Shown here: one piece after another, positions 4,973 to 60,002 of the stretch
How positions within the stretch are numbered: position 1 is the stretch's first letter
How the letters are laid out: the number at the start of each line of letters is the position of its first letter
DNA from: Burkholderiales bacterium
GTDB taxonomy: Bacteria > Pseudomonadota > Gammaproteobacteria > Burkholderiales > JACQAP01
Direction of reading: 5' to 3'
Assembly: GCA_035275265.1 (NCBI GenBank)
Contig: DATENC010000004.1
Coordinates: forward strand, 75,843-139,842
Length of the DNA: 64,000 bases
Program-made: the position numbers and the translations under genes
The notes under the pieces: generated by a model
Told to the model about the DNA's origin: nothing
What the model saw: the letters and a program-made list of their open reading frames with translations, nothing else
The model's database searches: none

Positions 4973-4975
4973 GAC

Positions 4976-5240
4976 AGGGACGAGGGAAGAGGGACGAGGG
5001 GCGAGAGCCGAGAGGGACTAAGGGAGATCACAGCCGGAGGGTCAATGAGTGAAGGGTAAGAGAACCGGATACGAGTGACAAGTGACAAGTGACGGCGAAT
5101 GGCAGTGAAGGGTGTGACACCTCTCCGGGTGCATGTGAGGGTGCCCCGCAAGGGGATTCCCACAAGGGGATACCGGCCTTCGACCATAACCGGCCTTCGA
5201 CCATAACCAGCCTTTGGCCATAAATGAGTGAAGAATGAAC
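4976..5240. repeat. mosaic word-repeat locus R3, the largest, containing all module types
   Basis: G-heptads, GTGACAA words (5075-5092), reverse D motif 5113-5136, and reverse E block with a 17-nt unit CCGGCCTTCGACCATAA in 2 copies plus 1 degenerate copy. 5141-5201 is identical to the reverse complement of 18932-18992. Confidence 0.95.
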
Positions 5241-7118: not shown

Positions 7119-8732
7119 ATGCTGGACTGGATCAAGAAGGACAACGGCCGTCCGGACCATCCGCTGCGCAATCCAGCGGCGGCCGCAAAGCTGCTTGCCG
7201 AAGTACGCGACTTCGATCCACTCACGGCGCTGAACGAGCTGAGCGCGTGGCTTGATGCGGTCAAGGGCGCCCCCAACAACGACGAAACAGTCCGCGGCGA
7301 GATTCTGTCTCTGATCCAGGAAGCGAGCAGCGCGCACGTATCCGCGCTATTGGCGCAATTTCTCGTGCCGCACAAAGATCATCGGGCGCCACGCGGGTCG
7401 GACTGGAACACCCTTCACCGTTACGTTGTGGGGCTGACGGGCGCGCTCACCGTGTCGGCCAGAATTCTGCTGACACAATCGGCGACGACCCCTTCGCTCC
7501 AGCTTCCCGGAGCAGCAGGCGCCGCGCGGGGAATTCACGCCTCTCGCACACTGGCGAAAATCTATCTCGTTCGCTACTTCAGCGTCCCGCCCAAGCTGTG
7601 GCGGCTTGCGTATGCAGTTCATGCCGACGCGGAGAAGGCTGGTTGCGCAACAACGCCCGTTCGCATGCACGCCACACAGAAAACGTCAACGAGCGTGACA
7701 CAGGAGTTGCTGCGGATGCTGATGCTGCAGTCAAGTTCGCCGGAGATGATGTCGCCCGAACATATCGAGGTTGCCGATCATGTGATCGAGCAACTGGGCG
7801 GAGATTTTACGCTGCGCCCGCGCGGCGTCGCCGACAACCCTTTCTGTTTCGATCCGGCGAGCGACCTGGCACCGCACCGCGCGCCCGCACAGCCGCCCAA
7901 TCCGGATACCGGAATTCGCTACTTCGGGGCAGGAACGGGATACGATGCCCTGGATCGACTGCACAAGCAGTTGGTGTCGACAGGGATCGCGGATGGCAAG
8001 CTCTCGGGCAAGGACATTCCTGTCCACACGCAAATCTCGGTCATCAAGCAATTGCTCGCGTTCTGGGGTCAAGCGTCTCCGTACTTCCCACCTGCCCGCA
8101 CGCCTGCTACGGGCCCGCTGCAGGTCGTTCAGGGCTATGCACAGATCTGGCAGCACCTGTCGCACGTTGGATCCGCTGCCACCGAGCTCGCGCTGGTGGA
8201 AGACGGCGACGTCGCAACGCAGCCCCCGGAAACGTGGGCTCTCCACGACACTGGCGGCAACGAACTCGGCGCGGAGATTCCGCAGCGATCGAGCGACTGG
8301 GTGCGATGCGGCGACCTTGTCGGCATCACGATGCCTGGCAGTGACGAGTGCTGGCTCGGCGTGATCCGCTCCATGCATGCTGAGCCCGATCGCAAGCGGC
8401 ACGCCAACATCTACGTCATGAGCCACCTTCCGCAGGCGGTGGAGATGCGCCCGGTCATCGCGAAGGGCGAAGTGAACATCCTCTCGGAGGCTGCGGCGCG
8501 GCAGTTCGGCTTCAAGAGCGTGCACGCGATCATCGTGTCAGACGGTGCCGGAGCGCCGCAAAATGCGAACTTTCTGTTGCCACCCGGCAGCTGGGAGGAG
8601 GGCCGCGTTTACGAAGCGACGATTGGGGGAGCTCCGCATTTCCTCCGCAGCCTTCTCCTACTGCGGCACGGCGACGATTTTGTGCGGGCGACGTTCGAGT
8701 GGGTGCAGAAAAGCAGTGAAGGACAGGTGTGA
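7119..8732 (+). CDS. hypothetical protein (537 aa), no confident domain
   Basis: Long ORF with coding-like composition. Its stop TGA lies in the first word of repeat locus R4. The C-terminal part (WALHDTGGNELGAEI...CWLGVIRSM) is faintly PilZ-like, which is very tentative. Confidence 0.6.
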   Translation: MLDWIKKDNGRPDHPLRNPAAAAKLLAEVRDFDPLTALNELSAWLDAVKGAPNNDETVRGEILSLIQEASSAHVSALLAQFLVPHKDHRAPRGSDWNTLHRYVVGLTGALTVSARILLTQSATTPSLQLPGAAGAARGIHASRTLAKIYLVRYFSVPPKLWRLAYAVHADAEKAGCATTPVRMHATQKTSTSVTQELLRMLMLQSSSPEMMSPEHIEVADHVIEQLGGDFTLRPRGVADNPFCFDPASDLAPHRAPAQPPNPDTGIRYFGAGTGYDALDRLHKQLVSTGIADGKLSGKDIPVHTQISVIKQLLAFWGQASPYFPPARTPATGPLQVVQGYAQIWQHLSHVGSAATELALVEDGDVATQPPETWALHDTGGNELGAEIPQRSSDWVRCGDLVGITMPGSDECWLGVIRSMHAEPDRKRHANIYVMSHLPQAVEMRPVIAKGEVNILSEAAARQFGFKSVHAIIVSDGAGAPQNANFLLPPGSWEEGRVYEATIGGAPHFLRSLLLLRHGDDFVRATFEWVQKSSEGQV

Positions 8733-8826
8733 GGGACGAGGGGCGAGGGACGAGGGTAGTGACAAGTGACGAGTGACAAGTGATGGGCCTAGCGGCAGTA
8801 AGGGAAAAACGGGAAGAACTGCAGGC
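8714..8826. repeat. mosaic word-repeat locus R4 (G-heptads + GTGAC heptads)
   Basis: GAGGGACGAGGGGCGAGGGACGAGGG followed by AGTGACAAGTGACGAGTGACAAGTGA, then CTAGCGGCAGTAAGGGAAAA and GAACTGCAGG. Confidence 0.9.
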
Positions 8827-8853
8827 GAAAGCATTATTGCTAGCGCACCGGCA

Positions 8854-9765
8854 TCACGGTCTGTCTGGCGTCGGCGTGGGGCTGGGTGGTGCAGGCACAG
8901 GCTGCGGACGGGGGTCGGACCCGCCTCTATTGATATCCTTTAGACACTCCTTGTGCGCCTTTTCACACTTGTCAACGGCAGCACTATGAGTGCCTAAGCA
9001 ATCCGGGCGCAAAGGAGAGAGCTTCCTCCTGTCCAGACATTTCTGATAGTTGCTCTCAGCCCGCCGTTTGCAACTGGCGTAGGGGCCTTGACACTTCAGG
9101 GCTGGACAGGTCTTTCTCAAGGTCTTGATGTATTCGACGCCCCGGCGCTGTATGAGATGTTCAGTGTTGTATCCGTATTCGCCGCTGCCAAACACCCAGT
9201 CTTCGCACCTCGCCTTGAATGCCCGTGGGAAGCTGCTTGGCAAGCCGCACGACTCGAATGACTTCGTTGTTTCGTCCTGCCCATCGGCGTTACAGTCGCA
9301 TGTAATCTCGCCGGAGTAGAAAACAGAACCCGGCGCTGCTGCCGGGTCTTTCTTGCAGTGATCCTCGGCACTGGAACGATCGGCAGCGGAATAAGGGGAT
9401 GACCATCCGCAGCTCGCGATGGATTGGCCGCTTCCGGCCGCCGCTTTTGCCTCGTGGTCCTCCACCTGTGCCGCGAGCGCGATTGACACCTCGGCTGGAA
9501 ACCCGGCGAGCACGTCCGCGATCTGGACCATACCCCCGCGGCACAAGCCGGCGCACCTGATGATGCTTCCCGCCCCCTGATTCTTCAGAACATGCGAAAG
9601 TACGACGACCGCGGCCGGTGATTTATCGCAGAACACATTGACTTGGTATATCTGATCGGCCCGTGCAGCGGAGGCGACGAAAACGCTTGCGGCGAGAAAG
9701 CCCAGTGCCGTTAGCCGGGAAAGCAGCAAATGGGTCAGGCACATACTTTCGGTTGGTCTGTCCAT
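8854..9765 (-). CDS. secreted cysteine-rich hypothetical protein with a Pro-rich C-terminal tail
   Basis: ATG at 9765 after GGAGAAG. Signal peptide ...LGFLAASVFVASAARA-DQ, about 19 Cys in the mature part, C-terminal RPQPVPAPPSPTPTPDRP. Confidence 0.65.
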   Translation of the reverse strand: MDRPTESMCLTHLLLSRLTALGFLAASVFVASAARADQIYQVNVFCDKSPAAVVVLSHVLKNQGAGSIIRCAGLCRGGMVQIADVLAGFPAEVSIALAAQVEDHEAKAAAGSGQSIASCGWSSPYSAADRSSAEDHCKKDPAAAPGSVFYSGEITCDCNADGQDETTKSFESCGLPSSFPRAFKARCEDWVFGSGEYGYNTEHLIQRRGVEYIKTLRKTCPALKCQGPYASCKRRAESNYQKCLDRRKLSPLRPDCLGTHSAAVDKCEKAHKECLKDINRGGSDPRPQPVPAPPSPTPTPDRP

Positions 9766-9856
9766 AATCTTCTCCGCATCGGACGTTAGGATGAAGGCCT
9801 TAAGTGCTGCTGAGAGAGTGAGCGTACTACGGGATCTCGTCCGTGCAACCGTACGA

Positions 9857-10429: not shown

Positions 10430-10438
10430 GTTAGAGAC

Positions 10439-10496
10439 CGTGAATGAGTGAATGAGTGAAGGGTAAGAGCGAAAACGGAGACTAGGGGCGAGGAAG
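10439..10496. repeat. mosaic word-repeat locus R5 (GTGAATGA octads)
   Basis: GTGAATGAGTGAATGAGTGAAGGGTAAGAG...ACTAGGGGCGAGGAAG. Confidence 0.8.
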
Positions 10497-10636
10497 CTCC
10501 ATAAGCGCCTCACTGAACATCCCGCTTTTCAAAAGTCATCTGCCGGTCTTGTGGTTGCATCAAGGAACTGAACTTCGACGTGCCATTTATCACCACGTCT
10601 GCGTCAGGATTCTACTTCGATCTTGATGAGAAAAAC

Positions 10637-10737
10637 AGGGACGAGGGGAGAGGGAAGAACTGCAGGGCTAGAAGTTAGGAAAGGCTCTAGTGATGTTACC
10701 CTTCACCCTCACATGCACCCGGAGGGGTGTCACTTCT
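10637..10737. repeat. mosaic word-repeat locus R6 (A + D modules)
   Basis: AGGGACGAGGGGAGAGGGAAGAACTGCAGG, then ACCCTTCACCCTCACATGCACCCGGAGGGGTGTCAC (D motif at 10710-10733). Confidence 0.9.
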
Positions 10738-10769
10738 TCACGCCACCACCACGGCGCAAGGGGATGTCA

Positions 10770-11588
10770 ATGAAATCGATCAAGCGCGAGCAATACGAGG
10801 AAGCCCTCGAAGCACTGCACACCGAGCTGATCAACCTGCAGCACTGGATCATTGCCAATAACCAGCGCGTGGCCGTTATTTTCGAGGGGCGCGATGCCGC
10901 CGGCAAGGGCGGTGTGATCAAGGCCATCGAGGCACCGCTCAACGATCGCTACGTGCGCACCGTCGCGCTTTCGAAACCCAATGAACTTGAGCGCAGCCAG
11001 TGGTACTTCGAGCGCTACGCGGCCCAGTTGCCGAGTGCTGGTGAACTTGTCCTCTTCGATCGCAGCTGGTACAACCGCGCCGGTGTCGAACTGGTCATGG
11101 GCTTCTGCACACCCGCCCAACACAAGCAGTTCCTGAAGGACTGCCCGGCGTTCGAACGCCTGATCACCAACGACGGCCTGATCCTGCTCAAGTACTGGCT
11201 CTGCGTCGACCAGGAAGAACAGGAAGAACGCTTCGCCGAACGGGCGAAGGATCCCGCCAAGCGCTGGAAACTGTCTCCAATCGACATCAAGGCGCGCGAG
11301 AAATACGCCGCATACGGCAAAGTGCGCGACAGGATGCTGCGTGCGACCCACACCGATTACGCACCCTGGTACGTGGTCAACTTCAACGACCAGAAACGCG
11401 GTCGATTGAACCTGATCGATCACCTGCTCAAGCGGCTGCCTAAGCGCGAATCTCCGGCCCCGGAACTGTCTCTACCCAAACTCTCCGGCAAGCCTCTCAA
11501 GGAACACATCCCTCGCGGTTTTCTCATTGAAGAGGGTGTGTGGAGAGGGGTGAGGGGTGAGGGGAGGGCAGGGAACAGTGACAAGTGA
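10770..11588 (+). CDS. ppk2: polyphosphate kinase 2
   Basis: PPK2 motifs VIFEGRDAAGKGG (Walker A), FDRSWYNR and a lid region. Start at 10764 or 10770 (AAGGGG upstream). The last ~20 aa and the TGA stop are encoded by repeat R7. Confidence 0.85.
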   Translation: MKSIKREQYEEALEALHTELINLQHWIIANNQRVAVIFEGRDAAGKGGVIKAIEAPLNDRYVRTVALSKPNELERSQWYFERYAAQLPSAGELVLFDRSWYNRAGVELVMGFCTPAQHKQFLKDCPAFERLITNDGLILLKYWLCVDQEEQEERFAERAKDPAKRWKLSPIDIKAREKYAAYGKVRDRMLRATHTDYAPWYVVNFNDQKRGRLNLIDHLLKRLPKRESPAPELSLPKLSGKPLKEHIPRGFLIEEGVWRGVRGEGRAGNSDK

Positions 11589-11594
11589 CGAGTG
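11531..11594. repeat. mosaic word-repeat locus R7, inside the 3' end of ppk2
   Basis: GAGGGGTGAGGGGTGAGGGGAGGGCAGGGAACAGTGACAAGTGACGAGTGG. It provides the ppk2 C-terminal tail and TGA stop. Confidence 0.85.
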
Positions 11595-12389: not shown

Positions 12390-12505
12390 AAGGGACGAGG
12401 GGCGCCCCGCAAGGGGATTCCCACAAGGGGATACCGGCCTTCGACCATAAATGAGGGAAGTGTGGCCCCCTCGTCCCTCTCCACTCGTCCCTCGCCCCTC
12501 GTGGC
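12390..12505. repeat. mosaic word-repeat locus R8 (G arm, reverse E block, C arm)
   Basis: AGGGACGAGGGGCG, then GCCCCGCAAGGGGATTCCCACAAGGGGATACCGGCCTTCGACCATAAATGAG (12403-12455, a 47-nt match to R3), then CCCTCGTCCCTCTCCACTCGTCCCTCGCCCCTCG. Confidence 0.9.
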
Positions 12506-15305: not shown

Positions 15306-15392
15306 GGTGAAGGTGTGACACCCCTCCGGGTGCATGTGAGGGGGAAAGACCGGTGACGAGTGACAAGTGACGGGTGACAAGTGACCGGTGAC
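15306..15392. repeat. mosaic word-repeat locus R9 (reverse D + GTGAC heptads)
   Basis: GTGACACCCCTCCGGGTGCATGTG (15315-15338), then GGTGACGAGTGACAAGTGACGGGTGACAAGTGACCGGTGAC. Confidence 0.9.
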
Positions 15393-15468: not shown

Positions 15469-16239
15469 ATGACTCAGGATCGTCTCGCCATCTACCCCAG
15501 CCTGAAGCACAAGGTCGTTTTCATTACCGGAGGTGGATCGGGGATCGGTGCCTCCATCGTCGAAGGATTTGTGCGCCAGAGCGCGAAGGTCGGGTTCGTT
15601 GACATCGACGCCGCCGCCAGCAACAAACTTGTGCAGAAACTCAAGGGCACCGGACAGGCGCCGCGATTCATCCGCTGCGATATCCGCGACATCGGGCAAC
15701 TGCGCGCGGCCATCGATAGGGTGCAGTCCGAATTGGGTGACATCGGCATCCTGGTCAACAACGCCGCACGGGACGATCGCCATTCGATCGAAAGCGTCAC
15801 GCCCGAATTCTGGGACGAGCGCGTTGCCGTGAACCTTCGCCACCAGTTCTTCGCTTCGCAGGCCGTCGCCGATCAGATGAAGCGCCTGGGCGGCGGCTCG
15901 ATCATCAATTTCGGTTCCATTTCCTGGATGACCGCAACCGGCGGCATGCCGGCATACACCACCAGCAAAGCCGCGGTCCACGGCCTGACGCGCGGGCTGG
16001 CGCGCGACCTCGGGCCGTTCAACATCCGCGCAAACACAGTGTCCCCCGGCTGGGTCATGACCGAGCGGCAGAAAAAACTCTGGGTGACACCGGAGGGCGA
16101 GAAACAGATGGACCAATTGCAGTGCCTGAAAGGCCGGCTACAGCCCGAAGATCTTGCCAACATGGTGCTGTTCCTCGCGTCGGATGACGCGAAGATGATC
16201 ACGTCGCAGAATTTCGTCGTGGATGCGGGATGGGTGTAG
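15469..16239 (+). CDS. SDR family oxidoreductase
   Basis: TGGGSGIG cofactor motif, NNAA, and the YxxxK catalytic motif (YTTSKAAV). Confidence 0.85.
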   Translation: MTQDRLAIYPSLKHKVVFITGGGSGIGASIVEGFVRQSAKVGFVDIDAAASNKLVQKLKGTGQAPRFIRCDIRDIGQLRAAIDRVQSELGDIGILVNNAARDDRHSIESVTPEFWDERVAVNLRHQFFASQAVADQMKRLGGGSIINFGSISWMTATGGMPAYTTSKAAVHGLTRGLARDLGPFNIRANTVSPGWVMTERQKKLWVTPEGEKQMDQLQCLKGRLQPEDLANMVLFLASDDAKMITSQNFVVDAGWV

Positions 16240-16240
16240 T

Positions 16241-16410
16241 ACGAGGGAAGAGGGAAGAGGGAAGAGGGACGAGGGAAGAGGGAAGGGGAAAACCAATTCT
16301 CTTCACGAGGCGCCTTCACTGCTTTCCCCCGTCACTTGTCACCTGTCACCCGTCACTCCTTTTCCCTACTACCTTTCCCTCGCCCCTCTTCCCTCGTCCC
16401 TCGCCCCTAG
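16241..16410. repeat. mosaic word-repeat locus R10 (long G arm, reversed GTGAC words, complementary C arm)
   Basis: (GAGGGAA)n GAGGGACGAGGGAAGAGGG on the left. GTCACTTGTCACCTGTCACCCGTCAC in the centre. CCCTCGCCCCTCTTCCCTCGTCCCTCGCCCC on the right, whose reverse complement shares a ~19-nt match with the left arm. Confidence 0.9.
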
Positions 16411-16456
16411 CCAGTGCCCGCTATACTTGTGACATCCGCCTCGCTCTCCGTTCTCC

Positions 16457-18099: not shown

Positions 18100-18885
18100 A
18101 TGTCCTATATCCTCGACGCTTTGCGGAAATCCGACCAACAGCGCCAGCGCGGTGCGGCACCGACCTTGCTTGCGGTGCAGACTGCGGCGATAGCGCCCAA
18201 ACAGCCCGCGTTGCTAACTTACGGCTTGCTCGCGGTTGTCCTGGTCGGTGCTGGCGTGGTGATCGGCTGGCTGCGCCCGTGGCAAACCCAGCAAGCGGTT
18301 CCTCATACTCCGGTAGCAGTTATCGTGAAGCCGCTCGAATCGATCCCGCGCGTACAGGGGCCCGCGCCATCTGTAGTCGCGCCGCGGCCGCCGTCCCCGG
18401 AGTTGCAGGCAGCGCAAACAGAGTCCGCACCTTCTGAAACGGCGCCGCAGTCCAAGGACACGACGCAGCCCGCAGAAACGGCCGCCGCCGGATCTGGAAA
18501 AGCGCCGCCGGCGAAGGCGAAACCGCTCGCGCGCGCTAAACCGGAAATGGATGGTCCACCGCGCGAAACTGCTGCGACCGCGCCTGAGAAAGCGGCGGCA
18601 CCTGCGCCACAGCGGTCTGCTGACATTGCGGCGTCCGATGCCACCAGCGGACCACCGGTGATATCGATGGCAGAACTGCCACCCCAGGTCCGCGAGGCGC
18701 TTCCCGTAATGACGATTTCGGTTCATGGTTATTCCGACAACCCCGAAGGGCGTCTGGTCGGAATCAACTACCGGATACTTCGTGAAGGTGATTCCGTGGT
18801 CCCCGGTCTCGAGCTGCAGCAGATCACGCCCGATGGCATGATTTTCAGCTTCAAGGGATTTAGATTCCGTCGCGGAGTGAAGTGA
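18100..18885 (+). CDS. gspB: GspB/ExeB-like general secretion pathway protein B
   Basis: MSYILDALRKSDQQRQ N-terminus typical of GspB, one TM segment, and a Pro/Ala-rich linker. Starts 3 nt after the exeA-like stop. Confidence 0.6.
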   Translation: MSYILDALRKSDQQRQRGAAPTLLAVQTAAIAPKQPALLTYGLLAVVLVGAGVVIGWLRPWQTQQAVPHTPVAVIVKPLESIPRVQGPAPSVVAPRPPSPELQAAQTESAPSETAPQSKDTTQPAETAAAGSGKAPPAKAKPLARAKPEMDGPPRETAATAPEKAAAPAPQRSADIAASDATSGPPVISMAELPPQVREALPVMTISVHGYSDNPEGRLVGINYRILREGDSVVPGLELQQITPDGMIFSFKGFRFRRGVK

Positions 18886-19030
18886 AAAGGACAGGGGAGA
18901 GGGACGAGGGGTCACCCTTCACTCATTTATAGTCGAAGGCCGGTTATGGTCGAAGGCCGGTATCCCCTTGTGGGAATCCCCTTGCGGGGCACCCGCACAT
19001 GCACCCGGAGGGTGTCACGCCTTCACTTCT
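18876..19030. repeat. mosaic word-repeat locus R11 (forward E block x2 units + D motif)
   Basis: 18932-18992 is a perfect 61-nt reverse complement of 5141-5201. D motif at 18996-19018. Starts at the gspB-like TGA stop. Confidence 0.95.
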
Positions 19031-23924: not shown

Positions 23925-23980
23925 TTCCCCTCGCCCCTTATGGTCGAAGACCGGTATCCCCTTGCGGGGCATCCCCGCAC
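23925..23980. repeat. mosaic word-repeat locus R12 (C-heptads + forward E block)
   Basis: TTTTCCCCTCGCCCCTTATGGTCGAAGACCGGTATCCCCTTGCGGGGCATCCCCGC. Confidence 0.8.
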
Positions 23981-23985
23981 TTCGC

Positions 23986-25260: not shown

Positions 25261-25802
25261 AGCGTGCGGTCCGTCATTTCATCGGCAGCGGACTGCTCAT
25301 GATTCCAGGTCAGGATCATCAGCAGCGACTCGAGCGCCGCGCCGACGGGAATTGCCAGGTAGACGGTCCATTTCGGCACGTCCAGCACCGGTGACTGCTG
25401 CATCCAAGTACGATCGATGAACTGGATGCCGGCCCAGAGCAAGATCAGGCTGAAGGCGAGCGTGAGCGTGTTGGCCGCCCACACGACAATGCGGCGCCCG
25501 GTCGGCGGCAGCATCAACTCGAGCACTTCGACGCGGATGTGGCCGCGCGAGGCCGCCACCAACGCGGAGCTGAGCATGATCCCCCAGAACATCGCGCCAC
25601 GCACGAGTTCCTCGGCCCAGAACAGGGACTCGTTCAACACGTAACGGAAGAACACTTGCAGCAGGACAAGTACGAAGTAGCTGGCAAGCAGCGCGACCGA
25701 AACCGCGGTCAGCGCTGCTCGAACCCCTCTCCCCCTCTCCCCGACCCTCTCCCGCGAGGGGAGAGGGAGTAACTTCAGAAACGAAAACAAAGTCTGCCCC
25801 AC
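25257..25802 (-). CDS. dctQ: TRAP transporter small permease subunit
   Basis: Four hydrophobic segments and operon position. The only canonical in-frame start is GTG at 25802 without an SD. The first ~27 codons are encoded by an arm of the inverted repeat (LLPLPSRERVGERGRG). Confidence 0.75.
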   Translation of the reverse strand: MGQTLFSFLKLLPLPSRERVGERGRGVRAALTAVSVALLASYFVLVLLQVFFRYVLNESLFWAEELVRGAMFWGIMLSSALVAASRGHIRVEVLELMLPPTGRRIVVWAANTLTLAFSLILLWAGIQFIDRTWMQQSPVLDVPKWTVYLAIPVGAALESLLMILTWNHEQSAADEMTDRTL

Positions 25803-25863
25803 ATGTTCTGGTTTAAGGGCTCCCTCTCCCCTCGCGGGAGAGGGTCGGGGAGAGGGGGAGGGG
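25724..25863. repeat. inverted pair of a different REP-like element flanking the dctQ start
   Basis: Left arm 25724-25769 is CCCCTCTCCCCCTCTCCCCGACCCTCTCCCGCGAGGGGAGAGGGAG. Right arm 25820-25863 is its near-perfect reverse complement. Each arm also holds its own hairpin (CCCTCTCCCGCGAGGGGAGAGGG). Confidence 0.9.
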
Positions 25864-25866
25864 AAC

Positions 25867-26874
25867 TCATGCCTTGCCGGCGGCCTGCACGGCCTCGACC
25901 AGTGCCTTGCCCTTCGGTCCGGCCCTGCCGACGAAGGTATTGATGACCGGCCCCATCTTCGAGCGGAAGCTTGGGATGTCGGGGTTCGGATTTGCCTTGA
26001 TCAGTTTGGCGAGTTCATTCCAGGCGGTCTGCTGCGCCTTGAGGTTTATTTCCCACATGTCCTTCTGCACGGCTTCGACGGCCGCGTCGCGAATTACCTT
26101 CTGCACGTCCGGCGGAAGCGACGCCATCTTCCTGGCGCTCGCCATCATCGACGCCTCGGTGAATATGTGGTGGGTGCGGGTAACGAAGCCGGCTACCTCG
26201 TAAGTCTTGGTTGAGACCATGAAATCAGCCGGCCCCTCGAATGCGTCGATCACGCCGGTCTGCAGCGCCGTGTAGATTTCCCCCGCTGGTATCGGTGTTG
26301 GATTGGCACCGAGCGCCTTGGCCATTTCGACCCAGGTTGGAATCTCGGGCACACGCAGGCGCAGCCCGCGAACGTCGTCGGCCGTCTGGATCGGCTTCCT
26401 GGACAGGAAGACACGAAAGCCCGAAGCACCCAGCGAGAGCACTTCCACACCGAGGGAGTCTTTTGCGTCCTTGCAGACTTGCTGGCCGATTGGCCCGTAC
26501 AAGACCTTCTTCACGTGATCGTAGTCGTGGAACAGGAACGGCAGCGAGACAAACCCGAAATGCGGTTGCCAGTTGCCCAAAGTGCCCAGGTCGGTCCAGC
26601 ACATGTCGAGCGTGCCGAGTTGCAGCGCCTCGGCCGAGGTGCGCAGGTTGAAAAGCTGGGAGGCTGGACGGATGCTGATGGTGACCGCGCCGTTCGTGCG
26701 CTGTTTGACCATCTCTGCGAATTTCTCCGCCACCCCGTGGATCAGATGGGTTGTCGGAACGTGGTGCGAGAACACCAGATTGATCGGCGCTTGACCCCAG
26801 CTCCGCCGCGGTAGAACCGCCACGCCGGCGGCCGCGGCGCCTGCCTTCAACAGATCGCGTCTGGAAATCGCCAT
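25867..26874 (-). CDS. dctP: TRAP transporter substrate-binding protein
   Basis: Tat-like signal MAISRRDLLKAGAAAAG, DctP-family length, and operon context. Confidence 0.9.
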   Translation of the reverse strand: MAISRRDLLKAGAAAAGVAVLPRRSWGQAPINLVFSHHVPTTHLIHGVAEKFAEMVKQRTNGAVTISIRPASQLFNLRTSAEALQLGTLDMCWTDLGTLGNWQPHFGFVSLPFLFHDYDHVKKVLYGPIGQQVCKDAKDSLGVEVLSLGASGFRVFLSRKPIQTADDVRGLRLRVPEIPTWVEMAKALGANPTPIPAGEIYTALQTGVIDAFEGPADFMVSTKTYEVAGFVTRTHHIFTEASMMASARKMASLPPDVQKVIRDAAVEAVQKDMWEINLKAQQTAWNELAKLIKANPNPDIPSFRSKMGPVINTFVGRAGPKGKALVEAVQAAGKA

Positions 26875-26983: not shown

Positions 26984-27040
26984 GGCGGTGACAAGTGACA
27001 AGTGACGAGGGGCGACGGCGAGGGCGAGGGGCAAAGGACG
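26984..27040. repeat. mosaic word-repeat locus R14 (GTGAC heptads + G words)
   Basis: GGCGGTGACAAGTGACAAGTGACGAGGGGCGACGGCGAGGGCGAGGGGCAAAGG, in the dctP/SLT divergent region. Confidence 0.85.
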
Positions 27041-27165
27041 GGTAGAATCAGAGCAGCAGTACTGCAGTAAGAAGAGGATTTCGCTTTCTGCTCCGTCAAT
27101 CTGCTGCTCCAATAGGCACTCGCAAGCGCCGGAGAAGGCGCAGGCGCCGCTTCGGCATCTCCAGG

Positions 27166-27948
27166 TTGTGGCCGAGCGCTCGTGTGCGCCGGCGTTGGGT
27201 TCGAACGTTCCGGAGCCTGCCGCTCACGACGCAGGCGATCATTGGGTTGGCTGTGATTTTCATTTTCTGGCTTGTGCTCAATCTGGCCTACCAGGTCATC
27301 CGCAAGCCATCGGAACTGTTCTTTCCGGTCAGCGGTGCGCTCTACAAAATGCCTTCCGAAACATGGGAGGAATACGGTCCAATCTTCAAGAAGCATTCGA
27401 CAAGCATCGTTACGCCCGAACTTCTCGCCGCACTCGCGCAAGTGGAGGGATCGGGAAATCCAGTGGTACGCACGTACTGGCGTTGGTCTATGACGCTCGA
27501 GCCGTTCGACGTGTATCGGCCGGCGTCCAGCGCGGTCGGGATGTATCAAATCACGAACGGGACGTTTGTCGAGGCGAAGCGCTACTGCATTCATGACCAC
27601 GTAGTCGTCGAGGACGGTCCCTGGAACGATTTTCGGTCATGCTGGTTCAACGGTCTGTATTCGCGGGTCGTACCGACGCATGCTGTCGAACTCACCTCCG
27701 CTTACCTGGACCGCAGCGTTGCGAACATATTGAACCGGCTGCGCATCACGAACGCCTCGCTTCAGCAGAAGCAGGACCTGGTCGCCGTTATTCACGTATG
27801 CGGCGCGGGGGCAGGCGAGGTTTACGCGAGACGCCGTTTTCGACTGACTTCCGGTCAGCGGTGCGGAGATCACCCTGTCCAGCCGTATGTCGAGCGCGTG
27901 AATCTGATGAAACGGGTGTTTCAGGGGTTGGAGAGAAGCGAGGGGTGA
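27166..27948 (+). CDS. membrane-anchored lytic transglycosylase (SLT domain) protein
   Basis: One N-terminal TM segment. SLT motifs QVEGSGNP and SAVGMYQIT. Confidence 0.65.
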   Translation: MWPSARVRRRWVRTFRSLPLTTQAIIGLAVIFIFWLVLNLAYQVIRKPSELFFPVSGALYKMPSETWEEYGPIFKKHSTSIVTPELLAALAQVEGSGNPVVRTYWRWSMTLEPFDVYRPASSAVGMYQITNGTFVEAKRYCIHDHVVVEDGPWNDFRSCWFNGLYSRVVPTHAVELTSAYLDRSVANILNRLRITNASLQQKQDLVAVIHVCGAGAGEVYARRRFRLTSGQRCGDHPVQPYVERVNLMKRVFQGLERSEG

Positions 27949-28032
27949 GGGGCGAGGGACGAGGGAACAGGCAGTGACGACGGACAGGTGACGAGGCTAG
28001 CGGCAGTGAAGGGTAAATGGGGAATGGGGAAG
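27930..28032. repeat. mosaic word-repeat locus R15
   Basis: GAGGGGTGAGGGGCGAGGGACGAGGGAACAGGCAGTGACGACGGACAGGTGACGAGGCTAGCGGCAGTGAAGGGTAAATGGGGAATGGGG. Shares CTAGCGGCAGT(A/G)AAGGG with R4. Confidence 0.9.
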
Positions 28033-28851: not shown

Positions 28852-29787
28852 ATGAAACTCGAATTCAAAGGTGTGTTTCCTGCTCCCCCTACGCCTATTG
28901 CCGAGGATGGGCGAATCCACGAGAAGGCTTTGCGTGCGCTACTCGATGACAATATTTCGCACGGATGCGGCGGCTTCTGGATGGCAGGGAGCACCGGCGA
29001 GGGGCCGATCCTCACGGATGAGCAACGGGATGCCGTCGCAAGAATTTCCGCGGAAGTGTGCAAAGGACGCGCACTCTGCATCATGCAGGTAGGCGCCATG
29101 AGTACGTCCAGCGCCGTGAAGGCGGCGAGGACCGCGCGGGCGGCGGGTTGTGCCGCGGTATGCTGCCTGCCACCGCTGTTCTTCCGGAGCAGCGAGCGTT
29201 CCATCATCGACTACTACAAGGCGGTGGCCGACGCGGCGGCCGACCTTCCGTTTTTCGTCTACAACCTCCCGCAACTCACGCAGGTGGAGTTCATCCCGGC
29301 GATGATGGAAAAGCTGGCGCGCGAGATTCCCACTCTGAAGGGCCTCAAACACTCCGCGCCGGATTTTTCCCAGATCCGCGTTTTCACGGATATGGGGCTT
29401 ACCTGCTTTTCCGGCAATGGGGCGTTTCCGCTGCCGGCAATCACTATGGGCGCGGTGGGCACGATCGATGCACCGCTCTCGATTGCGCCGTGGCACTACG
29501 TCGAGCTCTTCTCCGCCTGGGAAGCGGGCCACATGACCGTGGCTCAGTCTCTGCAGGACGGGGTGCGCAAGTATGTGGATCTGGTATGGATGTACGGTGC
29601 GCCTGCCGATGTCTGCAAGACGGTGCTCTCGGCTAGACTCGGTGTCGATTGCGGACGCTCCATCCCGCCGGTGAATCGCCTGACCGACGAACAACGGCGT
29701 GAAGTGCTCCGCGCAGCGGAGGCGTTGGGTGTGACCACAAGACAAGGACGAGCGGCGCGGGTCGAAGGACGAAGGGCGAATGGGTGA
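28852..29787 (+). CDS. dihydrodipicolinate synthase/N-acetylneuraminate lyase family protein
   Basis: DapA-family N-terminus (GVFPAPPTP...GSTGEG). The last ~17 aa and the TGA stop lie in repeat R16. Confidence 0.8.
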   Translation: MKLEFKGVFPAPPTPIAEDGRIHEKALRALLDDNISHGCGGFWMAGSTGEGPILTDEQRDAVARISAEVCKGRALCIMQVGAMSTSSAVKAARTARAAGCAAVCCLPPLFFRSSERSIIDYYKAVADAAADLPFFVYNLPQLTQVEFIPAMMEKLAREIPTLKGLKHSAPDFSQIRVFTDMGLTCFSGNGAFPLPAITMGAVGTIDAPLSIAPWHYVELFSAWEAGHMTVAQSLQDGVRKYVDLVWMYGAPADVCKTVLSARLGVDCGRSIPPVNRLTDEQRREVLRAAEALGVTTRQGRAARVEGRRANG

Positions 29788-29905
29788 AGCAGTGAAGGAG
29801 TGAATGAGTGAATGTGTGAAGGGTGAACGCGTTGAATTCCTCTAGCTCTTAGCCCCGAAACCCTGCAGTTGACCCTCGTCCCTCTCCCCTCTTCCCTCGC
29901 CCCTG
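29743..29905. repeat. mosaic word-repeat locus R16 between convergent genes
   Basis: GTGAAGCAGTGAAGGAGTGAATGAGTGAATGTGTGAAGGGTGAAC on the left. CCCTGCAGTTGACCCTCGTCCCTCTCCCCTCTTCCCTCGCCCCTG on the right. It overlaps both gene 3' ends. Confidence 0.9.
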
Positions 29906-31249
29906 TTCTTCCGTCAGTGTTCCCCCGCCCAGGCGATTCCGCACCCCGCCGATATGTTCACGCAGTACGTAAAGCTGGTCTGCAAACGCAAGTGGCGTAC
30001 GTAGATTGGTCACCGACTCCTGAATGTCGTCAAGCCGTTTAAGGATTTCCTGTTTGCGCTCCGGGCTCGGGTTGGCGAGCATGTCGCGCTCGAGCGCCAT
30101 CAGCGCGCCGTACCATTTGTAGATGCGTGATCGTACCCGCCAGCGGTATAGCGGCGGCACTATGCGTATCGCCGGGATCACGATCACTACCAGCGGCACC
30201 AGCACCACCAGCATGCGATCCACCAGGCTTGCCAGCCAGAACGGCAATTTCTTGTAAAGGAACGGCGTACCCGAACGGTAGAAGCGTTGCGCGTCTTCGC
30301 TGATCGGAAAATCACGTTCCAGCGGCGCCGGGAATTCCCCGGCCTTGCGGTACATGCCCGCGGAGCCGTGAATCTCCCGCGCAGCGCTGATCAGCAGGTC
30401 CGATAGCGCGGGATGCAGGTTGTCGCGGGCGACCAGTTCAACGGTCGGACCTACGAGTTCGACTGCGTCGTGCGGTATGTCCTGCCCCAGGTCAAAGGCG
30501 CCTTTCGGGAGCGTGAGCCGCGAAAGAAACTTCAGGCGGCGCATGTAACCGTCGGCCTGGGTGAAGTTCATCAATTTGATCCCCGGGACCTTCAGCAAAT
30601 CGCGCAGCACCTGTCCGCGCACCAGCTCGCCCATGAGGAAAGCGGCATCGATCTTCCCCTGCTTGAGTGCCTCGACCGCATCGTCCCCGTCAAAATCCAA
30701 CAGGCGCGTCGGGCCCTTGTCCATGCCGTTTGCAACCAGGAACTTCATCGCGATCACGTGGGTCCCGCTGCCTTCCGGCCCGATAGCGACGCGTTTGCCT
30801 TCCAGTTGGGTGAGCCGCTCTACCAGTTCATTGCCGCGATAAAAGACTAGAACCGGCTGTACGAACACGCTGCCCAGAGACATCAGGCCGCCGGTTTCGA
30901 TGCCTTCGCTCACGCCGCCCAGCACGAATCCCACATCGGCGTAGACCGTGCGATCCGCCAAGCGCCGCAGGTTGTCCTGCGCGCCCTCGGTTTCGACCAC
31001 CCGCACGTTCACTCCGCTGCGCGCGATGATCTTTGCGTAGCGCTCGGCGGTTCGGTTGTAGCTGCTTTCCTTCGGGCCGGCGAGCATGACGATCGAATCC
31101 GGGGGCGCCGGGCCGATGAATTTGACCGCCAGCCAGGCGCCGAGCGCGGTGATCAGGACCACAGGTACGCCGATAGCAAGCAGGTCGTGCCAGGATACTT
31201 TCACCAGCTTGACCGGCATTTGCAGGCGTTTGATTCCTTGGGGGCTCAT
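29849..31249 (-). CDS. TAXI-family (COG2358-like) solute-binding domain protein with an N-terminal and a C-terminal TM anchor
   Basis: TM1 (LLAIGVPVVLITALGAWLAV), a PBP-like core, TM2 (LVVLVPLVVIVIPAI) and a helical tail. Paralog of the 62922-64000 product. Start ambiguous (31219, 31249, 31261 or 31276). The C-terminal tail is encoded by R16. Confidence 0.7.
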   Translation of the reverse strand: MSPQGIKRLQMPVKLVKVSWHDLLAIGVPVVLITALGAWLAVKFIGPAPPDSIVMLAGPKESSYNRTAERYAKIIARSGVNVRVVETEGAQDNLRRLADRTVYADVGFVLGGVSEGIETGGLMSLGSVFVQPVLVFYRGNELVERLTQLEGKRVAIGPEGSGTHVIAMKFLVANGMDKGPTRLLDFDGDDAVEALKQGKIDAAFLMGELVRGQVLRDLLKVPGIKLMNFTQADGYMRRLKFLSRLTLPKGAFDLGQDIPHDAVELVGPTVELVARDNLHPALSDLLISAAREIHGSAGMYRKAGEFPAPLERDFPISEDAQRFYRSGTPFLYKKLPFWLASLVDRMLVVLVPLVVIVIPAIRIVPPLYRWRVRSRIYKWYGALMALERDMLANPSPERKQEILKRLDDIQESVTNLRTPLAFADQLYVLREHIGGVRNRLGGGTLTEEQGRGKRGEGRGSTAGFRG

Positions 31250-32908: not shown

Positions 32909-33535
32909 ATGCCCACCATAAGGATTTCTCCCCGTGTCAGCTTGCTTGTTGCAATGTCCGCACTGCTTGTCGGTGACGGCCTCACCGCGGAAACCACGGC
33001 ACCGCCTGCGCAAGCGGCAACTGCCATCTTTGCCGGCGGCTGCTTCTGGTGCGTGGAAGCGGACTTCGACAAACTTCCTGGCGTAACGAACACCGAATCG
33101 GGTTACGCCGGAGGCAAGCTGCAAAATCCGACTTACGAGCAGGTGAGCGCCGGCGGCACCGGCCATACCGAGGCGGTACGCGTGACCTATGATCCGAAGA
33201 AGGTGACTTACGAGCAACTGCTGGAATATTTCTGGCACCACGTCGATCCCACAGTGAAGGACCAGCAGTTCTGCGACATCGGCAACCAGTACCGCACCGC
33301 GATCCTTTACCTGGATGAGGCGCAGCGGCGTGCGGCGACAGCCAGCAAGGCGTTGCTCGACAAGAGCGGTCGACTTGCGCACATCTACACTGAAATCGTG
33401 CCGGCCGGCAACTTCTATCCGGCCGAGGAATATCACCAGGACTACTACAAGAAGAACCCGATCCGTTACAAATACTACCGTGCAAGCTGCGGCCGTGATG
33501 CGCGGCTAAAGGAGGTCTGGGGAAAGAAGGGTTGA
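32909..33535 (+). CDS. msrA: peptide-methionine (S)-S-oxide reductase, secreted form
   Basis: Signal peptide followed by the GGCFWC active-site motif and a YHQ(D)Y C-terminal motif. Confidence 0.9.
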
Positions 33536-33621
33536 GGGGAGAGGGACGGAGGGGGATTGAGGATTGGGGATTGGGTCGTAGCCTTCACCCTTCAGCCTCA
33601 CATGCACCGGAGGGGTGTCAC
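33531..33621. repeat. mosaic word-repeat locus R17 (G words, GATTG heptads, D motif)
   Basis: GTTGAGGGGAGAGGGACGGAGGGGGATTGAGGATTGGGGATTGGG, then CCTTCACCCTTCAGCCTCACATGCACCGGAGGGGTGTCAC (D motif at 33599-33621). Confidence 0.9.
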
Positions 33622-33714
33622 TGTCGTTCGACCACATCCAATTCAGCACGGTGCACGCGAATTCGCCGCGACGGAGACTACGGCGTTTCGCCAATCGTGA
33701 TTGCGGACGAGGGA

Positions 33715-34533
33715 ATGATGGGGCCGCTGGTGACGCTTAAAGTCCACAAGACACTGCGAGCTGCTGCGTACGCCGGTACGCACACTGTCGAGTGCTCGCT
33801 GGACCTGGATCGTTCGACGACGACGGTCGAGACGGGCGCTGCGGGATGGATATGGAATGGCCAACGATTCCCCTGGCTGGAACCCTGTAAGGACAGAACC
33901 ATTTACCACTGGAATGGGGAGACGTTTCAGCCTGTGTCGCGTTTTACGACGTCACTTATCAAGTTGGTGCCGACGCAGTGGGGGGCCCCAACGTTCGAAA
34001 TCGATGGCATAAAGATGTTGCCCACGGCGAAAGTTTCACCTTATGCGGATGCCGAACGCAAAGTCGGCTTGATTCAACCGCGTGGCAAGGTGATTCTGGA
34101 TACTTGTGGCGGCCTTGGCTATTTCGCAGCGTGGTGTCTGCTGGGTCAGGCCACGCAGGTGCTTTCTTACGAGAAGAACCCCGACGTGATCTGGCTGCGC
34201 AGCCTGAATCCCTGGTCGCCCGTGACCAGGATTCAATTGACGCTTACCGAGGGAGACATTGCGGAGAAAATCGCAACGCTCCCCAGCGGGTCGGTCGACG
34301 CGATTTTGCACGACCCGCCGCGTTTCGGGATCGCAGGAGAACTCTACTCGCAGGTTTTTTATGACCACTTGGGCAGGGTACTCAAGCGCAAGGGCAGGCT
34401 GTTTCATTACACCGGCACGCCGAACAAACTCACCAGCGGACGTGATGTGCCTAACGAAGTGGCGAAACGTTTGCGGCATGCCGGATTTGCCGCTGAGTTG
34501 AATGGCGACGGAGTGTTGGCGGTGAAGAAGTGA
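33715..34533 (+). CDS. class I SAM-dependent methyltransferase
   Basis: ILDTCGGLGY (motif I) and HDPPRF (DPPY-like motif IV). Upstream ORF extension is repeat R17. Confidence 0.6.
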   Translation: MMGPLVTLKVHKTLRAAAYAGTHTVECSLDLDRSTTTVETGAAGWIWNGQRFPWLEPCKDRTIYHWNGETFQPVSRFTTSLIKLVPTQWGAPTFEIDGIKMLPTAKVSPYADAERKVGLIQPRGKVILDTCGGLGYFAAWCLLGQATQVLSYEKNPDVIWLRSLNPWSPVTRIQLTLTEGDIAEKIATLPSGSVDAILHDPPRFGIAGELYSQVFYDHLGRVLKRKGRLFHYTGTPNKLTSGRDVPNEVAKRLRHAGFAAELNGDGVLAVKK

Positions 34534-34622
34534 AGAGTGAGGTGCGAGGGACGAGGGGCGGACCGAAAGGCAGTGAAGTAAGACCCCTCTTCCCCCGCCC
34601 CTCGTCCGTCTTCCCTCTCCTC
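34521..34622. repeat. mosaic word-repeat locus R18 between convergent genes (G arm / C arm)
   Basis: GTGAAGAAGTGAAGAGTGAGGTGCGAGGGACGAGGGGCGG, then CCCCTCTTCCCCCGCCCCTCGTCCGTCTTCCCTCTCC. The arms share a complementary GACGAGGGGCGG core. Confidence 0.9.
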
Positions 34623-35065
34623 TATCGGTACGACACAATTCGATCCAGTCCGGCCTTCCCAAAACTTCCAATGCGTTGCCATTGCAGGAGTGCGCTCTCG
34701 CCGTGCATGTGACTATCGAGTGAGCGTTTAATGCGCCGGATGTCATCCGGCGTCCAATCGTGTGTTTCAGCGTTGGCAATGAGCCGGTCTTTTACCGCGC
34801 GGAAAGCGTCGTCAACGGAATCAGGGTTGTGCTCCCCGTTGTTCATCCGAATCTTCTCCAGAGAAAGCATCGGTAACTTTGTCCAGTAACATGCGGAGTC
34901 GATAAGACTGCAGACTTGGCTGATGTGGCGGGAAACCTTGCCGGGTTTCTGGCCGAGATGTTCCGCAATTCCCCCATAAGTGAGGTGCTGTCCACGCGAC
35001 AGGACTTCGCGTTCGATGATATCCAATGCTTTTTTCGCATCGACGTACTGTTTTTGCGCGGACAT
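34622..35065 (-). CDS. hypothetical protein with a winged-helix-like N-terminal region
   Basis: ATG after GGAG. The LTYGGIAEHLG...SQVCSLIDSAC...LPMLS pattern resembles self-reporting wHTH modules. Lower GC than its surroundings. Confidence 0.5.
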   Translation of the reverse strand: MSAQKQYVDAKKALDIIEREVLSRGQHLTYGGIAEHLGQKPGKVSRHISQVCSLIDSACYWTKLPMLSLEKIRMNNGEHNPDSVDDAFRAVKDRLIANAETHDWTPDDIRRIKRSLDSHMHGESALLQWQRIGSFGKAGLDRIVSYR

Positions 35066-36870: not shown

Positions 36871-36874
36871 TCCA

Positions 36875-36912
36875 GGAGCGAGGGAAGGGGGAATGGGAAG
36901 GGCGAAAGGGGA
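36875..36912. repeat. short word-repeat locus R19
   Basis: GAGCGAGGGAAGGGGGAATGGGAAGGGCGAAAGGGGAG, just after the yihY-like stop. Confidence 0.6.
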
Positions 36913-36980
36913 GTGCGGAGAACTCCCGTGCCTGAAACAGGTCACGAGAAGATCACCTGAATTTGGCGGAGGATATTGTC

Positions 36981-37163
36981 GTGATTTCTTTGCAAACACC
37001 TGAGCCCCCGAGGCACGATCCAGCCCACGACCGGCCGCCTCCGATGCCGCCGCCTTCAATCGACGACGTTCCACTGATCATTCCACCGCAAGAGGAACCC
37101 CCCATCCTGCCGCCGGACGACGAGCCGGGACCGGTGCACGAGCCGCCAGCACGCAAACACTAG
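36981..37163 (+). CDS. small proline-rich hypothetical protein
   Basis: GTG 7 nt after GGAGGA. 60 aa rich in PPP; PPPSIDDVP resembles the PPPIDRPPP repeats of the 45555-45845 product. Confidence 0.35.
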   Translation: MISLQTPEPPRHDPAHDRPPPMPPPSIDDVPLIIPPQEEPPILPPDDEPGPVHEPPARKH

Positions 37164-37289
37164 GGACGAGGGGAGAGGGGCGAGGGGCGAGAAAGAGGGA
37201 AGAGGGACGAGGGACGAGGAAAGACGGAATGGGGATTGAGGATTTGGGAATGAGCTTTTCACCCCTCGCCCCTCGCCCCTCTTCCCTCA
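37161..37289. repeat. mosaic word-repeat locus R20 between convergent genes (G arm, GATTG words, C arm)
   Basis: AGGGACGAGGGGAGAGGGGCGAGGGGCGAG...GAGGGACGAGGGACGAGG on the left, GGGGATTGAGGATTTGGGAATG in the centre, CACCCCTCGCCCCTCGCCCCTCTTCCCTCAC on the right. The arms are complementary over GAGGGGCGAGGGGCGAG. Confidence 0.9.
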
Positions 37290-38866: not shown

Positions 38867-38908
38867 ACGGGTTCTCCGAATAGGTCTGTGGCAGAATTTC
38901 GCAAGGAT

Positions 38909-59996: not shown

Positions 59997-60002
59997 TCAA
60001 GA

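Follow-up and report, generated by a model that had tools for sequence, protein, structure and literature searches.

This study concerns arrays of purine-rich 7- and 8-nt repeat words, and the genes that end in them, in a 64,000-nt stretch of a Burkholderiales genome assembly (GCA_035275265.1, contig DATENC010000004.1, positions 75,843–139,842 of the forward strand), hereafter the window. At the site 8714–8826, a 537-aa open reading frame (ORF; 7119–8732, plus strand) belonging to family PF27104, labelled FimW_N, draws its last five codons (SEGQV) and its TGA stop from repeat words. The first array (8729–8756, plus) consists of four GAGGGAC/GAGGGGC words, fits the G-quadruplex pattern G3N4 repeated four times, and is stop-free on both strands except for a leading GTGAGGG word, which is the source of the TGA at 8730–8732. 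The second (8757–8785, plus) consists of four GTGACAA/GTGACGA words with TGA in three frames and an open complement. Within it, positions 8759–8783 read GTGACAAGTGACGAGTGACAAGTGA, where TGA at offsets 1, 8, 15 and 22 hits all three frames and the complement has no stop. A purine-rich trailer (GGCCTAGCGGCAGTAAGGG...GAACTGCAGG; 8786–8831, plus) follows, with like strings again at 27981–28010 and 10650–10668. The region 8725–8850 is solitary and unstructured (fold z = −0.5).

An earlier note on this DNA had proposed that the repeats act as stop cassettes with TGA in every frame and have been recruited as gene termini, and it named eight gene ends that fall on the TGA of a repeat word (8732, 11588, 18885, 27948, 29787, 34533, 41213 and, on the minus strand, 37259). 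All eight were found inside or at the edge of arrays, and the four protein tails it quoted, those of PPK2, GshA, a TAXI-like protein and a helicase, are correct. Pfam supports seven of the eight ORFs, as PPK2, GspB, an SLT-like protein, DHDPS, a methyltransferase-like protein, UvrD and GshA. A ninth case had been missed, since the MsrA stop is the TGA of GGTTGAGGGGAG at 33535. The TAXI tail runs past GRGKRGEGRG as STAGFRG and ends at a TAA (29849–29851) that lies outside any word.

On the plus strand, GGGGTGA followed by GTGACAA/GTGACGA words (11528–11594) supplies PPK2 with both its tail WRGVRGEGRAGNSDK and its stop (11586–11588), and GTGAAGTGAAAAGG followed by GAGGG words (18871–18915) contains the GspB stop at 18883–18885. 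A GAGGGGT/GAGGGRC array (27922–27977, plus) contains the stop of the SLT-like gene (27946–27948). In DHDPS, both the tail and the stop (29785–29787) come from GAAGGRC words followed by GTGAAGGA/GTGAATGA 8-mers (29759–29837, plus), and the region 29755–29904 is unstructured (z = −0.9). A GAGGG-type array whose purine strand is the minus strand (29868–29926) is translated as the TAXI tail ...EEQGRGKRGEGRG, with the TAA stop lying beyond the array. GAGGGGA and GGGGATT words (33517–33576, plus) contain the MsrA stop at 33533–33535. The methyltransferase-like stop (34531–34533) is found in a purine arm of GTGAAGA and GAGGGRC words that is followed by a pyrimidine arm at 34581–34631, the whole (34517–34631) being predicted to fold as a hairpin of −49.7 kcal/mol (z = −4.1). 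An inverted pair of GAGGG arrays at 37155–37297 forms a predicted hairpin of −65 kcal/mol (z = −6.9), and its arm at 37253–37297, read on the minus strand, gives the GshA tail REGRGARGEG and the stop at 37259–37261. GTGAAGG-type words at 41162–41214 (plus) encode the UvrD tail NGGEGGRVKSEGEMSE and its stop at 41211–41213.

These ends were compared with those of orthologs. Two metagenome-assembled genomes (MAGs), L001 and L002, were the best genome matches by GshA, with 87% and 76% amino-acid identity, and the lineage is Burkholderiales-like; three further contigs of closer relatives were found in ENA/NCBI by exact-protein look-up. In every gene aligned (FimW_N-like, PPK2, TAXI, UvrD, GshA, DHDPS, MsrA and methyltransferase-like), homology stops a few residues before the repeat-coded tail. 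The 532-aa orthologs of the FimW_N-like protein end in ...ATFEWVQQS, while the window protein ends in ...EWVQKSSEGQV and the 95%-identical P0241 in ...EWVQKNSEG. About 100 PPK2 orthologs of 257 aa end in ...IPRGFLIEETF, compared with ...IEEGVWRGVRGEGRAGNSDK in the window. The native end of TAXI is ...RNRLAGQH, to which the window protein adds about 23 aa; a 98%-identical protein has another tail, its ORF reading through a GTGAAGG word and two short elements of 14 and 17 nt (described below). UvrD ends in ...LRGMWG in L001, ...LRGMWKGSEW in L085 and ...LRGMWVNGGEGGRVKSEGEMSE in the window. GshA ends in ...RLRAKRV followed by NGTTERR in L001, in ...RLRARRVA in L002 and in RREGRGARGEG in the window. 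The DHDPS tails diverge after ...ALGVT. MsrA and the methyltransferase-like protein are 4–5 aa shorter than in relatives, the latter by 5 aa relative to L085. The net C-terminal change ranges from −5 to +23 aa, and the extensions are rich in Gly, Arg and Glu. The earlier proposal that native 3' ends have repeatedly been replaced is thus borne out, since the tails are not conserved in orthologs and differ even between contigs that are about 95% identical. These alignments support the view that the repeats have repeatedly become gene termini, displacing the native stop and the last residues. A reassignment of TGA was ruled out by the ortholog ends.

The arrays themselves differ between close relatives. 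Compared with L081, a contig of about 95% nucleotide identity, the DHDPS/TAXI spacer of the window (29773–29915) is unalignable and has different words, and a 69-nt block of GGGGATT and CCTTCAC words (33556–33624) is present in the window and absent from L081. Contig L208 derives from the same sample as L081 and is also about 95% identical to the window. A 1.1-kb segment of the window (8723–9852), which includes an unsupported 303-aa ORF (8854–9765, minus), is absent from L208, and in its place is a 146-nt spacer of GTGAAGG, CCTAATT and GAGGG words. The left breakpoint of this replacement lies exactly at the start of the array. Other purine-rich words were identified at orthologous gene ends in L002 (AAAAGGG, the form (AAAAGGG)n occupying the place of the array in the SLT-like gene, as well as AAGGTAA and CGTGAATRT), in L001 (GACGCAGAG) and in L085 (GTGAACG). 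Array position is conserved across relatives and array content is not, and the differences between strains are replacements of whole blocks and not of copy number alone. The stringent detector described below returned few arrays in L001, yet GTGA and GACGCAGAG words were found there at orthologous gene ends; the notion that this closest relative is free of arrays was accordingly rejected. The arrays change faster than the genes that flank them and are hypervariable.

Arrays were identified with a detector that combines a period of 7 or 8 nt with purine (or pyrimidine) skew, and its output is referred to as the stringent set; Tandem Repeats Finder (TRF) was also run. The detector superseded an earlier scan for purine tracts (17 of 21 purines), which was too permissive in that it returned 206 tracts compared with 166 in shuffled sequence. 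Genes were mapped from Pfam-supported ORFs after a self-trained codon-usage caller was dropped owing to miscalls such as PPK2. The window contains 24 stringent arrays, of period 7 and in some cases 8, whereas 30 Markov-1 simulations gave a mean of 0.57 and a maximum of 2. Their density is about 0.4 per kb, with about 25 arrays in the intergenic spacers of the window, and every one of the 24 lies in a spacer or overlaps the terminus of an ORF, none being interior to a gene. Although arrays cover 1.4% of the window, 7 of 57 gene stops are inside them (P = 1.6e-5), or about 10 if looser edges are allowed. All of these ~10 genes use TGA, while the other 47 use TGA 21 times, TAG 19 times and TAA 7 times. 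The words are of 7–8 nt and include the families GAGGGRC, GTGACRA, GTGAAKGA and GGGGATT, among others, and arrays vary continuously in unit number and word mix. Summed over all arrays, the purine strand has 71 stops and the pyrimidine strand 5. The claim of an all-frame cassette holds for GTGACAAGTGACGAGTGACAAGTGA and its open complement and does not extend to the arrays as a class: stops in three frames were found in 6 of the 24, and 9 of the 24, of the GAGGGRC type, have no stop at all. As a pattern match only, 11 of 24 arrays fit four runs of G3+N1–7, and the GTGA-type arrays do not. A scan of the whole window against Rfam 15 at the gathering score gave no match, a scan of ten unannotated ORFs against NCBIfam gave none, and a literature search on the word strings themselves returned only unrelated eukaryotic matches.

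The placement of the arrays follows a rule. Along the purine strand, an array begins 0–12 nt after an ORF boundary, which is mostly the stop of a co-directional gene and sometimes the start of an opposing one. At abutted gene ends the purine strand is the coding strand in 16–17 cases, with 2–3 exceptions (p ~ 0.001–0.003). Orientation relative to the upstream gene is non-random in the window; a random one would have counted against the earlier note's proposal. At two of the exceptions, those after 12389 and 62036, the array is the pyrimidine arm of a pair that opens with its purine arm at the stop; the third concerns an ORF lacking support, which the sister strain does not have. Antisense arrays by start codons begin at 4974 (2 nt from an MFS gene) and 10438 (9 nt from the likely ATG of Ysc84), and others lie upstream of starts at 16377–16413 (44 nt, GspA) and 62074–62122 (8–30 nt, DUF2652).

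Many arrays are joined as inverted pairs. Five pairs in the window, among them the one in the fold of 61990–62125, place the purine arm before the pyrimidine arm and one, made of another 8-nt word, has the reverse order. Four of the five purine-first pairs fold at −50 to −77 kcal/mol (z = −3.8 to −6.9), while about half of all arrays lack both a partner arm and structure. Where arrays do form hairpins, these are long and built of words, and no T-run follows them. In scans of 20–60 kb, sites resembling canonical terminators occur at the level expected by chance, and the only strong hairpin and T-run terminators in the 60 kb scanned are two on the minus strand (46503–46527 and 46817–46840). Arrays were therefore rejected as intrinsic (Rho-independent) terminators, given the lack of a U-tract and the long, word-built hairpins.

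The same arrangement was examined in independent sets: GTGACRAGTGACRAGTGAC matched at least 120 contigs from metagenomes and 91 from IMG/VR, and three tandem copies of GAGGGRC matched 73 from IMG/VR. For GTGACRA arrays in the metagenome contigs, among the matches listed, solitary arrays were sense to antisense in a ratio of 18:7 and pairs were purine-first to reverse in a ratio of 21:0; the corresponding values in IMG/VR were 16:4 and 13:1. The stop-free GAGGGRC arrays of IMG/VR gave 18:7 and 7:0. When the three sets are pooled, the polarity is 41:1 in favor of the purine arm first (among the matches listed).

The remaining pairs and arrays of the window may be considered site by site. The hairpin of −77 kcal/mol (z = −3.8) at 16238–16413 begins 3 nt past the native TAG of an SDR gene with (GAGGGAA)7, followed by a loop and by pyrimidine arms of reverse-complemented GTGAC and GAGGG words; in L001 the SDR ortholog has a different word (GACGCAGAG) about 30 nt downstream of its stop. 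At 1846–2037, a purine array after the PanE TAA is accompanied by pyrimidine arrays, made of minus-strand GTGA words, which begin immediately past the TAG of a convergent F420-oxidoreductase gene. At 61995–62122, purine words in the end of a guanylate-cyclase-family coding sequence (CDS) are combined with a pyrimidine array 36 nt past its stop, which lies 8–30 nt upstream of the next start codon (DUF2652), with a predicted fold of −50 kcal/mol (z = −3.9). A weak pair (z = −1.7) at 12391–12502, directly after the TAG of a pentapeptide-repeat gene, is composed of a short purine stretch, an element of the 14- and 17-nt kind and a pyrimidine array. Divergent spacers hold three plus-strand arrays. 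GAGGG and then GTGA words at 4974–5095 lie 2 nt from the MFS start codon, antisense to that gene and with no upstream gene end; three copies of GTGAATGA with GAGGG words occupy 10438–10668 between Ysc84 (likely ATG 10429) and PPK2 (likely ATG 10764 or 10770), with 2.6 copies of GTGAATGA at 10440–10460; and three GTGACAA words followed by GGGCGA words are found at 26985–27053 between DctP and the SLT-like gene. Also on the plus strand are a GTGACRA array at 15328–15392, which separates the SDR gene from a 320-aa gene of unknown function, degenerate GAGGGAA/GGGGGAA words at 36869–36924, 9 nt past the BrkB TGA, and a GAGGGGT/GAGGGGC array at 59998–60036, 7 nt past the DUF4440 TGA.

Beside many arrays there is a composite of two elements, a CCCCTTGCGGGGAT-like 14-mer that forms a small hairpin and a ACCGGCCTTCGACCATA-like 17-mer; in some cases the composite is duplicated in tandem. 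It was identified at 5145–5223, 12406–12460, 18927–18988 (as the reverse complement) and 23950–23985, as well as in L002, L081 and L083, and the unit is conserved in relatives at 76–87% protein identity. In L081 it is translated in the TAXI tail and gives that gene its TAA stop. The composite may be a REP-like element (repetitive extragenic palindromic sequence). A second motif, RCAGTGA, has 9 of its 17 window matches at array edges (5102, 8713, 11575, 27971, 28003, 29789 and 34570, and on the minus strand 16316 and 33618), and many GTGACRA arrays in unrelated metagenome contigs are preceded by the lead-in (a)gcaGTGAC (among the matches listed).

Some starts also lie in repeat words. The sole plausible start of thioredoxin-2 (Trx2), GTG 41206, is inside such words and overlaps the UvrD stop (GTGAGTGA). 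GTG 11592, the start of the longest ORF of the pentapeptide-repeat gene next to PPK2, is inside the words of the PPK2-tail array. GTG 15388 is in array words as well, although it is probably not the true SDR start, as the L001 ortholog aligns only from residue 19. GTGA words can thus supply starts as well as stops. Two observations concern the genes themselves. The nearest named homologues of PPK2 (10764–11588; ~67–81% identity) come from Dokdonella and other Xanthomonadales and not from Betaproteobacteria. The genes gshA and uvrD (37259–41213) are divergent neighbors in the window and convergent, tail to tail and about 50 nt apart, in L001, which points to a local rearrangement whose junction carries repeat words. 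Two further repeats were noted. The spacer between dctP and dctQ (25715–25871) carries an inverted repeat of another 8-nt word (CCCCTCTC / GGGGAGAG), the only pair in the window with its pyrimidine arm first on the plus strand. Upstream of folE (45608–45796) is a 75-nt tandem repeat of 2.5 copies (78% matches) that is C-/CCG-rich and unrelated to the heptamer words.

The account that is favored, with a probability of about 0.6, is that hypervariable arrays of purine-rich words occupy ORF ends and often overrun native stops, and that the presence of TGA in all frames is a by-product. About half of the abutted genes no longer have their native stop, and their ORFs read into the array as far as the first in-frame stop, which has the form U-R-R (uridine followed by two purines) and is almost always the TGA of a GTGA word. 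The outcome is C-termini peculiar to a lineage or strain, from a loss of 5 aa to an extension of 23 aa. The arrays may arise and change by slippage together with block replacement or recombination, as simple-sequence repeats do, and their placement and polarity could reflect a general rule for purine-rich heptamer repeats with or without stops. Coverage of all frames by TGA would be a matter of arithmetic, since stop codons are U-R-R and a period of 7 or 8 is not a multiple of three: a T within a purine-rich word nearly always brings a stop with it, and the period moves that stop from frame to frame; the pyrimidine complement cannot carry stops because a stop codon is uridine followed by two purines. 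GTGA-type arrays would be tolerable at stop codons because this coverage caps read-through, and they need not have been selected for it.

Several points weigh against this account. None of the mechanisms considered explains why arrays hug the ORF that is 5' of the purine strand. Among T-initiated array triplets, TGA occurs 60 times where 16 would be expected, a 3.7-fold excess, TGG falls short at 12 against 29 expected, and GTGA cores appear again in the words of several relatives. The TGA excess could reflect selection for stops or a GTGA-specific function; it is only suggestive, however, because the copies in an array are not independent and the effective sample is a handful of word families. 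The strong hairpins (z = −3.8 to −6.9), together with the few convincing terminators, leave room for a selected function at the RNA level. In addition, the gene map is partly heuristic, with about 10 ORFs that have no family support, and the ORFs of the metagenome and IMG/VR contigs were called with a simple filter on GC content at third codon positions (GC3).

What the stops do can be judged from ORFs that enter an array. Those entering GTGACRA arrays end within 25 nt, while those entering GAGGGRC arrays run for 42–215 nt. On independent contigs, among the matches listed, the TGA of one of the first three words closes 19 of the 43 ORFs that abut GTGACRA arrays, with tails such as VTSDE and SDK. 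That GTGA-type arrays cap read-through at about 8 codons or fewer is a real consequence. It may also be proposed as a purpose, with arrays being retained at gene ends as stop cassettes that catch read-through and frameshifted ribosomes and that turn their purine strand toward incoming genes. Consistent with this are the excess of TGA over TGG, the backup stops provided by an in-frame TGA every 21 nt, and the 41:1 polarity by which, among the matches listed, the stop-bearing arm comes first for either member of a convergent gene pair. As an explanation it is nevertheless quite unlikely, since stop-free GAGGGRC arrays show the orientation bias and polarity of the GTGACRA arrays in the window and, with a sense bias of 18:7 and a polarity of 7:0, in other contigs as well, and the orientation rule is therefore independent of stops. 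In Xanthomonas, the GGGAATC repeats follow the same rules and likewise have no stops (Rehm et al. 2015, PMC4692102). Within the window, 9 of 24 arrays are without a stop and just 6 of 24 cover three frames; GTGA arrays are found in divergent spacers without an upstream gene end (4974–5095, 10438–10497 and 26985–27015), and one is antisense between co-directional genes (16328–16360). Conservation within the GTGACRA unit is only marginally higher at TGA positions than at others (0.80–0.84 vs 0.74–0.81). The stop cassette of the earlier note is thus a correct description of what a GTGA array does, and is not supported as the reason for the presence of the arrays.

If not the stops, the RNA or the DNA of the arrays might be what is selected or spread. 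An element of the 3' untranslated region (UTR) that acts through hairpins or through G-quadruplexes (four or more GAGGGRC words), as a terminator, a barrier to 3' exonucleases, or an anti-Rho or Rho-loading site, is a possible though unlikely alternative. The arrays sit directly after stop codons, 11 of 24 fit the quadruplex pattern, and hairpins of −50 to −77 kcal/mol at four sites coincide with a shortage of canonical terminators, the two strong ones apart. The Xanthomonas repeats, for their part, form G-quadruplexes in vitro and are transcribed, though no function has been found for them (PMC4692102). Set against such a role are the half or so of the arrays that are solitary and unstructured (8725–8850 and 29755–29904), the missing U-tracts, the arrays that are antisense at start codons, and the words and copy numbers that are not conserved at orthologous sites. 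It is rather unlikely that the arrays are mobile palindromes akin to REP sequences or MITEs (miniature transposable elements with inverted repeats), in which word hairpins and the 14-mer and 17-mer are inserted as blocks by a transposase or recombinase and the protein tails are scars. In favor of such elements are block replacement between strains, the RCAGTGA edge motif, the conserved 14-mer and 17-mer unit in L002, L081 and L083, and the occurrence of the same GTGACRA hairpins in unrelated contigs, at least 120 of them from metagenomes and 91 from IMG/VR. However, no transposase or RAYT-like gene was found among the window ORFs scanned, no target-site duplications, fixed ends or fixed unit were identified (although a subset of arrays does form palindromes), and the continuous variation in unit number and word mix resembles that of simple-sequence repeats. 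A reading that joins these proposals is improbable: GTGACRA-like arrays would be a widespread class of gene-boundary element in environmental bacteria and their viruses, set at stop codons to almost the exact nucleotide and with the purine arm always first, selected both as a translational backstop (UGA in all frames, and in-frame once per 7 codons) and as a 3' hairpin, and perhaps moving as blocks that rewrite C-termini. Integron attC sites, which also place hairpins at the 3' ends of ORFs, were dropped as a candidate because an integrase is lacking and the arrays lie between syntenic housekeeping genes.

On the favored account, hypervariable intergenic repeats can steadily yield new, strain-specific, low-complexity C-termini on housekeeping proteins such as GshA, UvrD and PPK2, and the purine-rich orientation is self-limiting because stop codons are U-R-R. 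The end of an ORF beside such an array is consequently an unreliable marker of the ancestral C-terminus. The occurrence of stop-bearing and stop-free words in one genome provides a natural control, one that allows a role in stopping translation to be told apart from whatever causes the orientation rule. The same arrangement is present in hundreds of metagenomic and IMG/VR contigs of unassigned taxonomy.

Several known kinds of repeat invite comparison. REP sequences and bacterial interspersed mosaic elements (BIMEs) are abundant intergenic hairpins found just after stops, often between convergent genes; each stem is a unique palindrome whose head is conserved, and RAYT transposases mobilize them. 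The stems described here consist instead of tandem words in varying number, a partner arm is missing from many arrays, and no RAYT gene was seen in the window. With the short tandemly repeated repetitive (STRR) heptanucleotides of the cyanobacteria Calothrix and Anabaena, a single genome has several different tandem heptamers scattered over its intergenic DNA. The present arrays share this dispersal of multiple heptamers, while the words and the phylum differ; to our knowledge, no link between STRR sequences and stop codons or protein tails has been described. 

The TAACTGA direct repeats of Beggiatoaceae and cyanobacteria (MacGregor 2015, PMC4679880) also stop all frames on the forward strand and leave the reverse strand open. 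Their overlap with the end of a CDS is thereby limited to 18 nt and any gene that entered them would terminate; they are mostly a few nt upstream of starts and were proposed as the binding site of a translational regulator. Only the GTGA-type arrays (6 of 24) share the combination of all-frame stops and an open reverse strand. TAACTGA is a single AT-rich word near starts, whereas the words here are others and are mainly at stops, and neither a purine-strand rule nor hairpin pairs are described in PMC4679880. The tandem repeats of Borg elements are reported to evolve fast, arise independently and create new disordered protein regions (PMC9879509). They resemble the present arrays in making low-complexity additions to proteins and differ in belonging to archaeal extrachromosomal elements.

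Judged by sequence features, the known repeats to which the arrays come nearest are the G-rich heptamers that Rehm et al. (2015, PMC4692102) described in Xanthomonas (GGGAATC) and Nostoc (GGGGAYT). About 90% of those repeats are intergenic, and along the G-rich strand they are far nearer to the 5' neighboring ORF, whatever its orientation, most often within 50 nt after a stop on the coding strand and in some cases overlapping the stop codon. Paired copies are always convergent, and length and sequence vary between close relatives. Every one of these sequence-level features is found in the window: the period of 7, the purine- or G-rich words, the intergenic location, the abutment on the 5' ORF, the convergent pairs and the variability. 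The window differs in that one genome draws on many word families, some with 8-nt words and some with a T, as in the GTGA words, and in consequence has many arrays with stops. GTGA words cannot form the G-quadruplexes that were demonstrated in vitro for the Xanthomonas repeats, and those of GAGGGRC arrays are candidates predicted here from the sequence pattern. It differs further in that about 10 genes terminate in arrays with repeat-coded tails. The placement rules of the Xanthomonas and Nostoc heptamers are thereby extended to an uncultured betaproteobacterial lineage.

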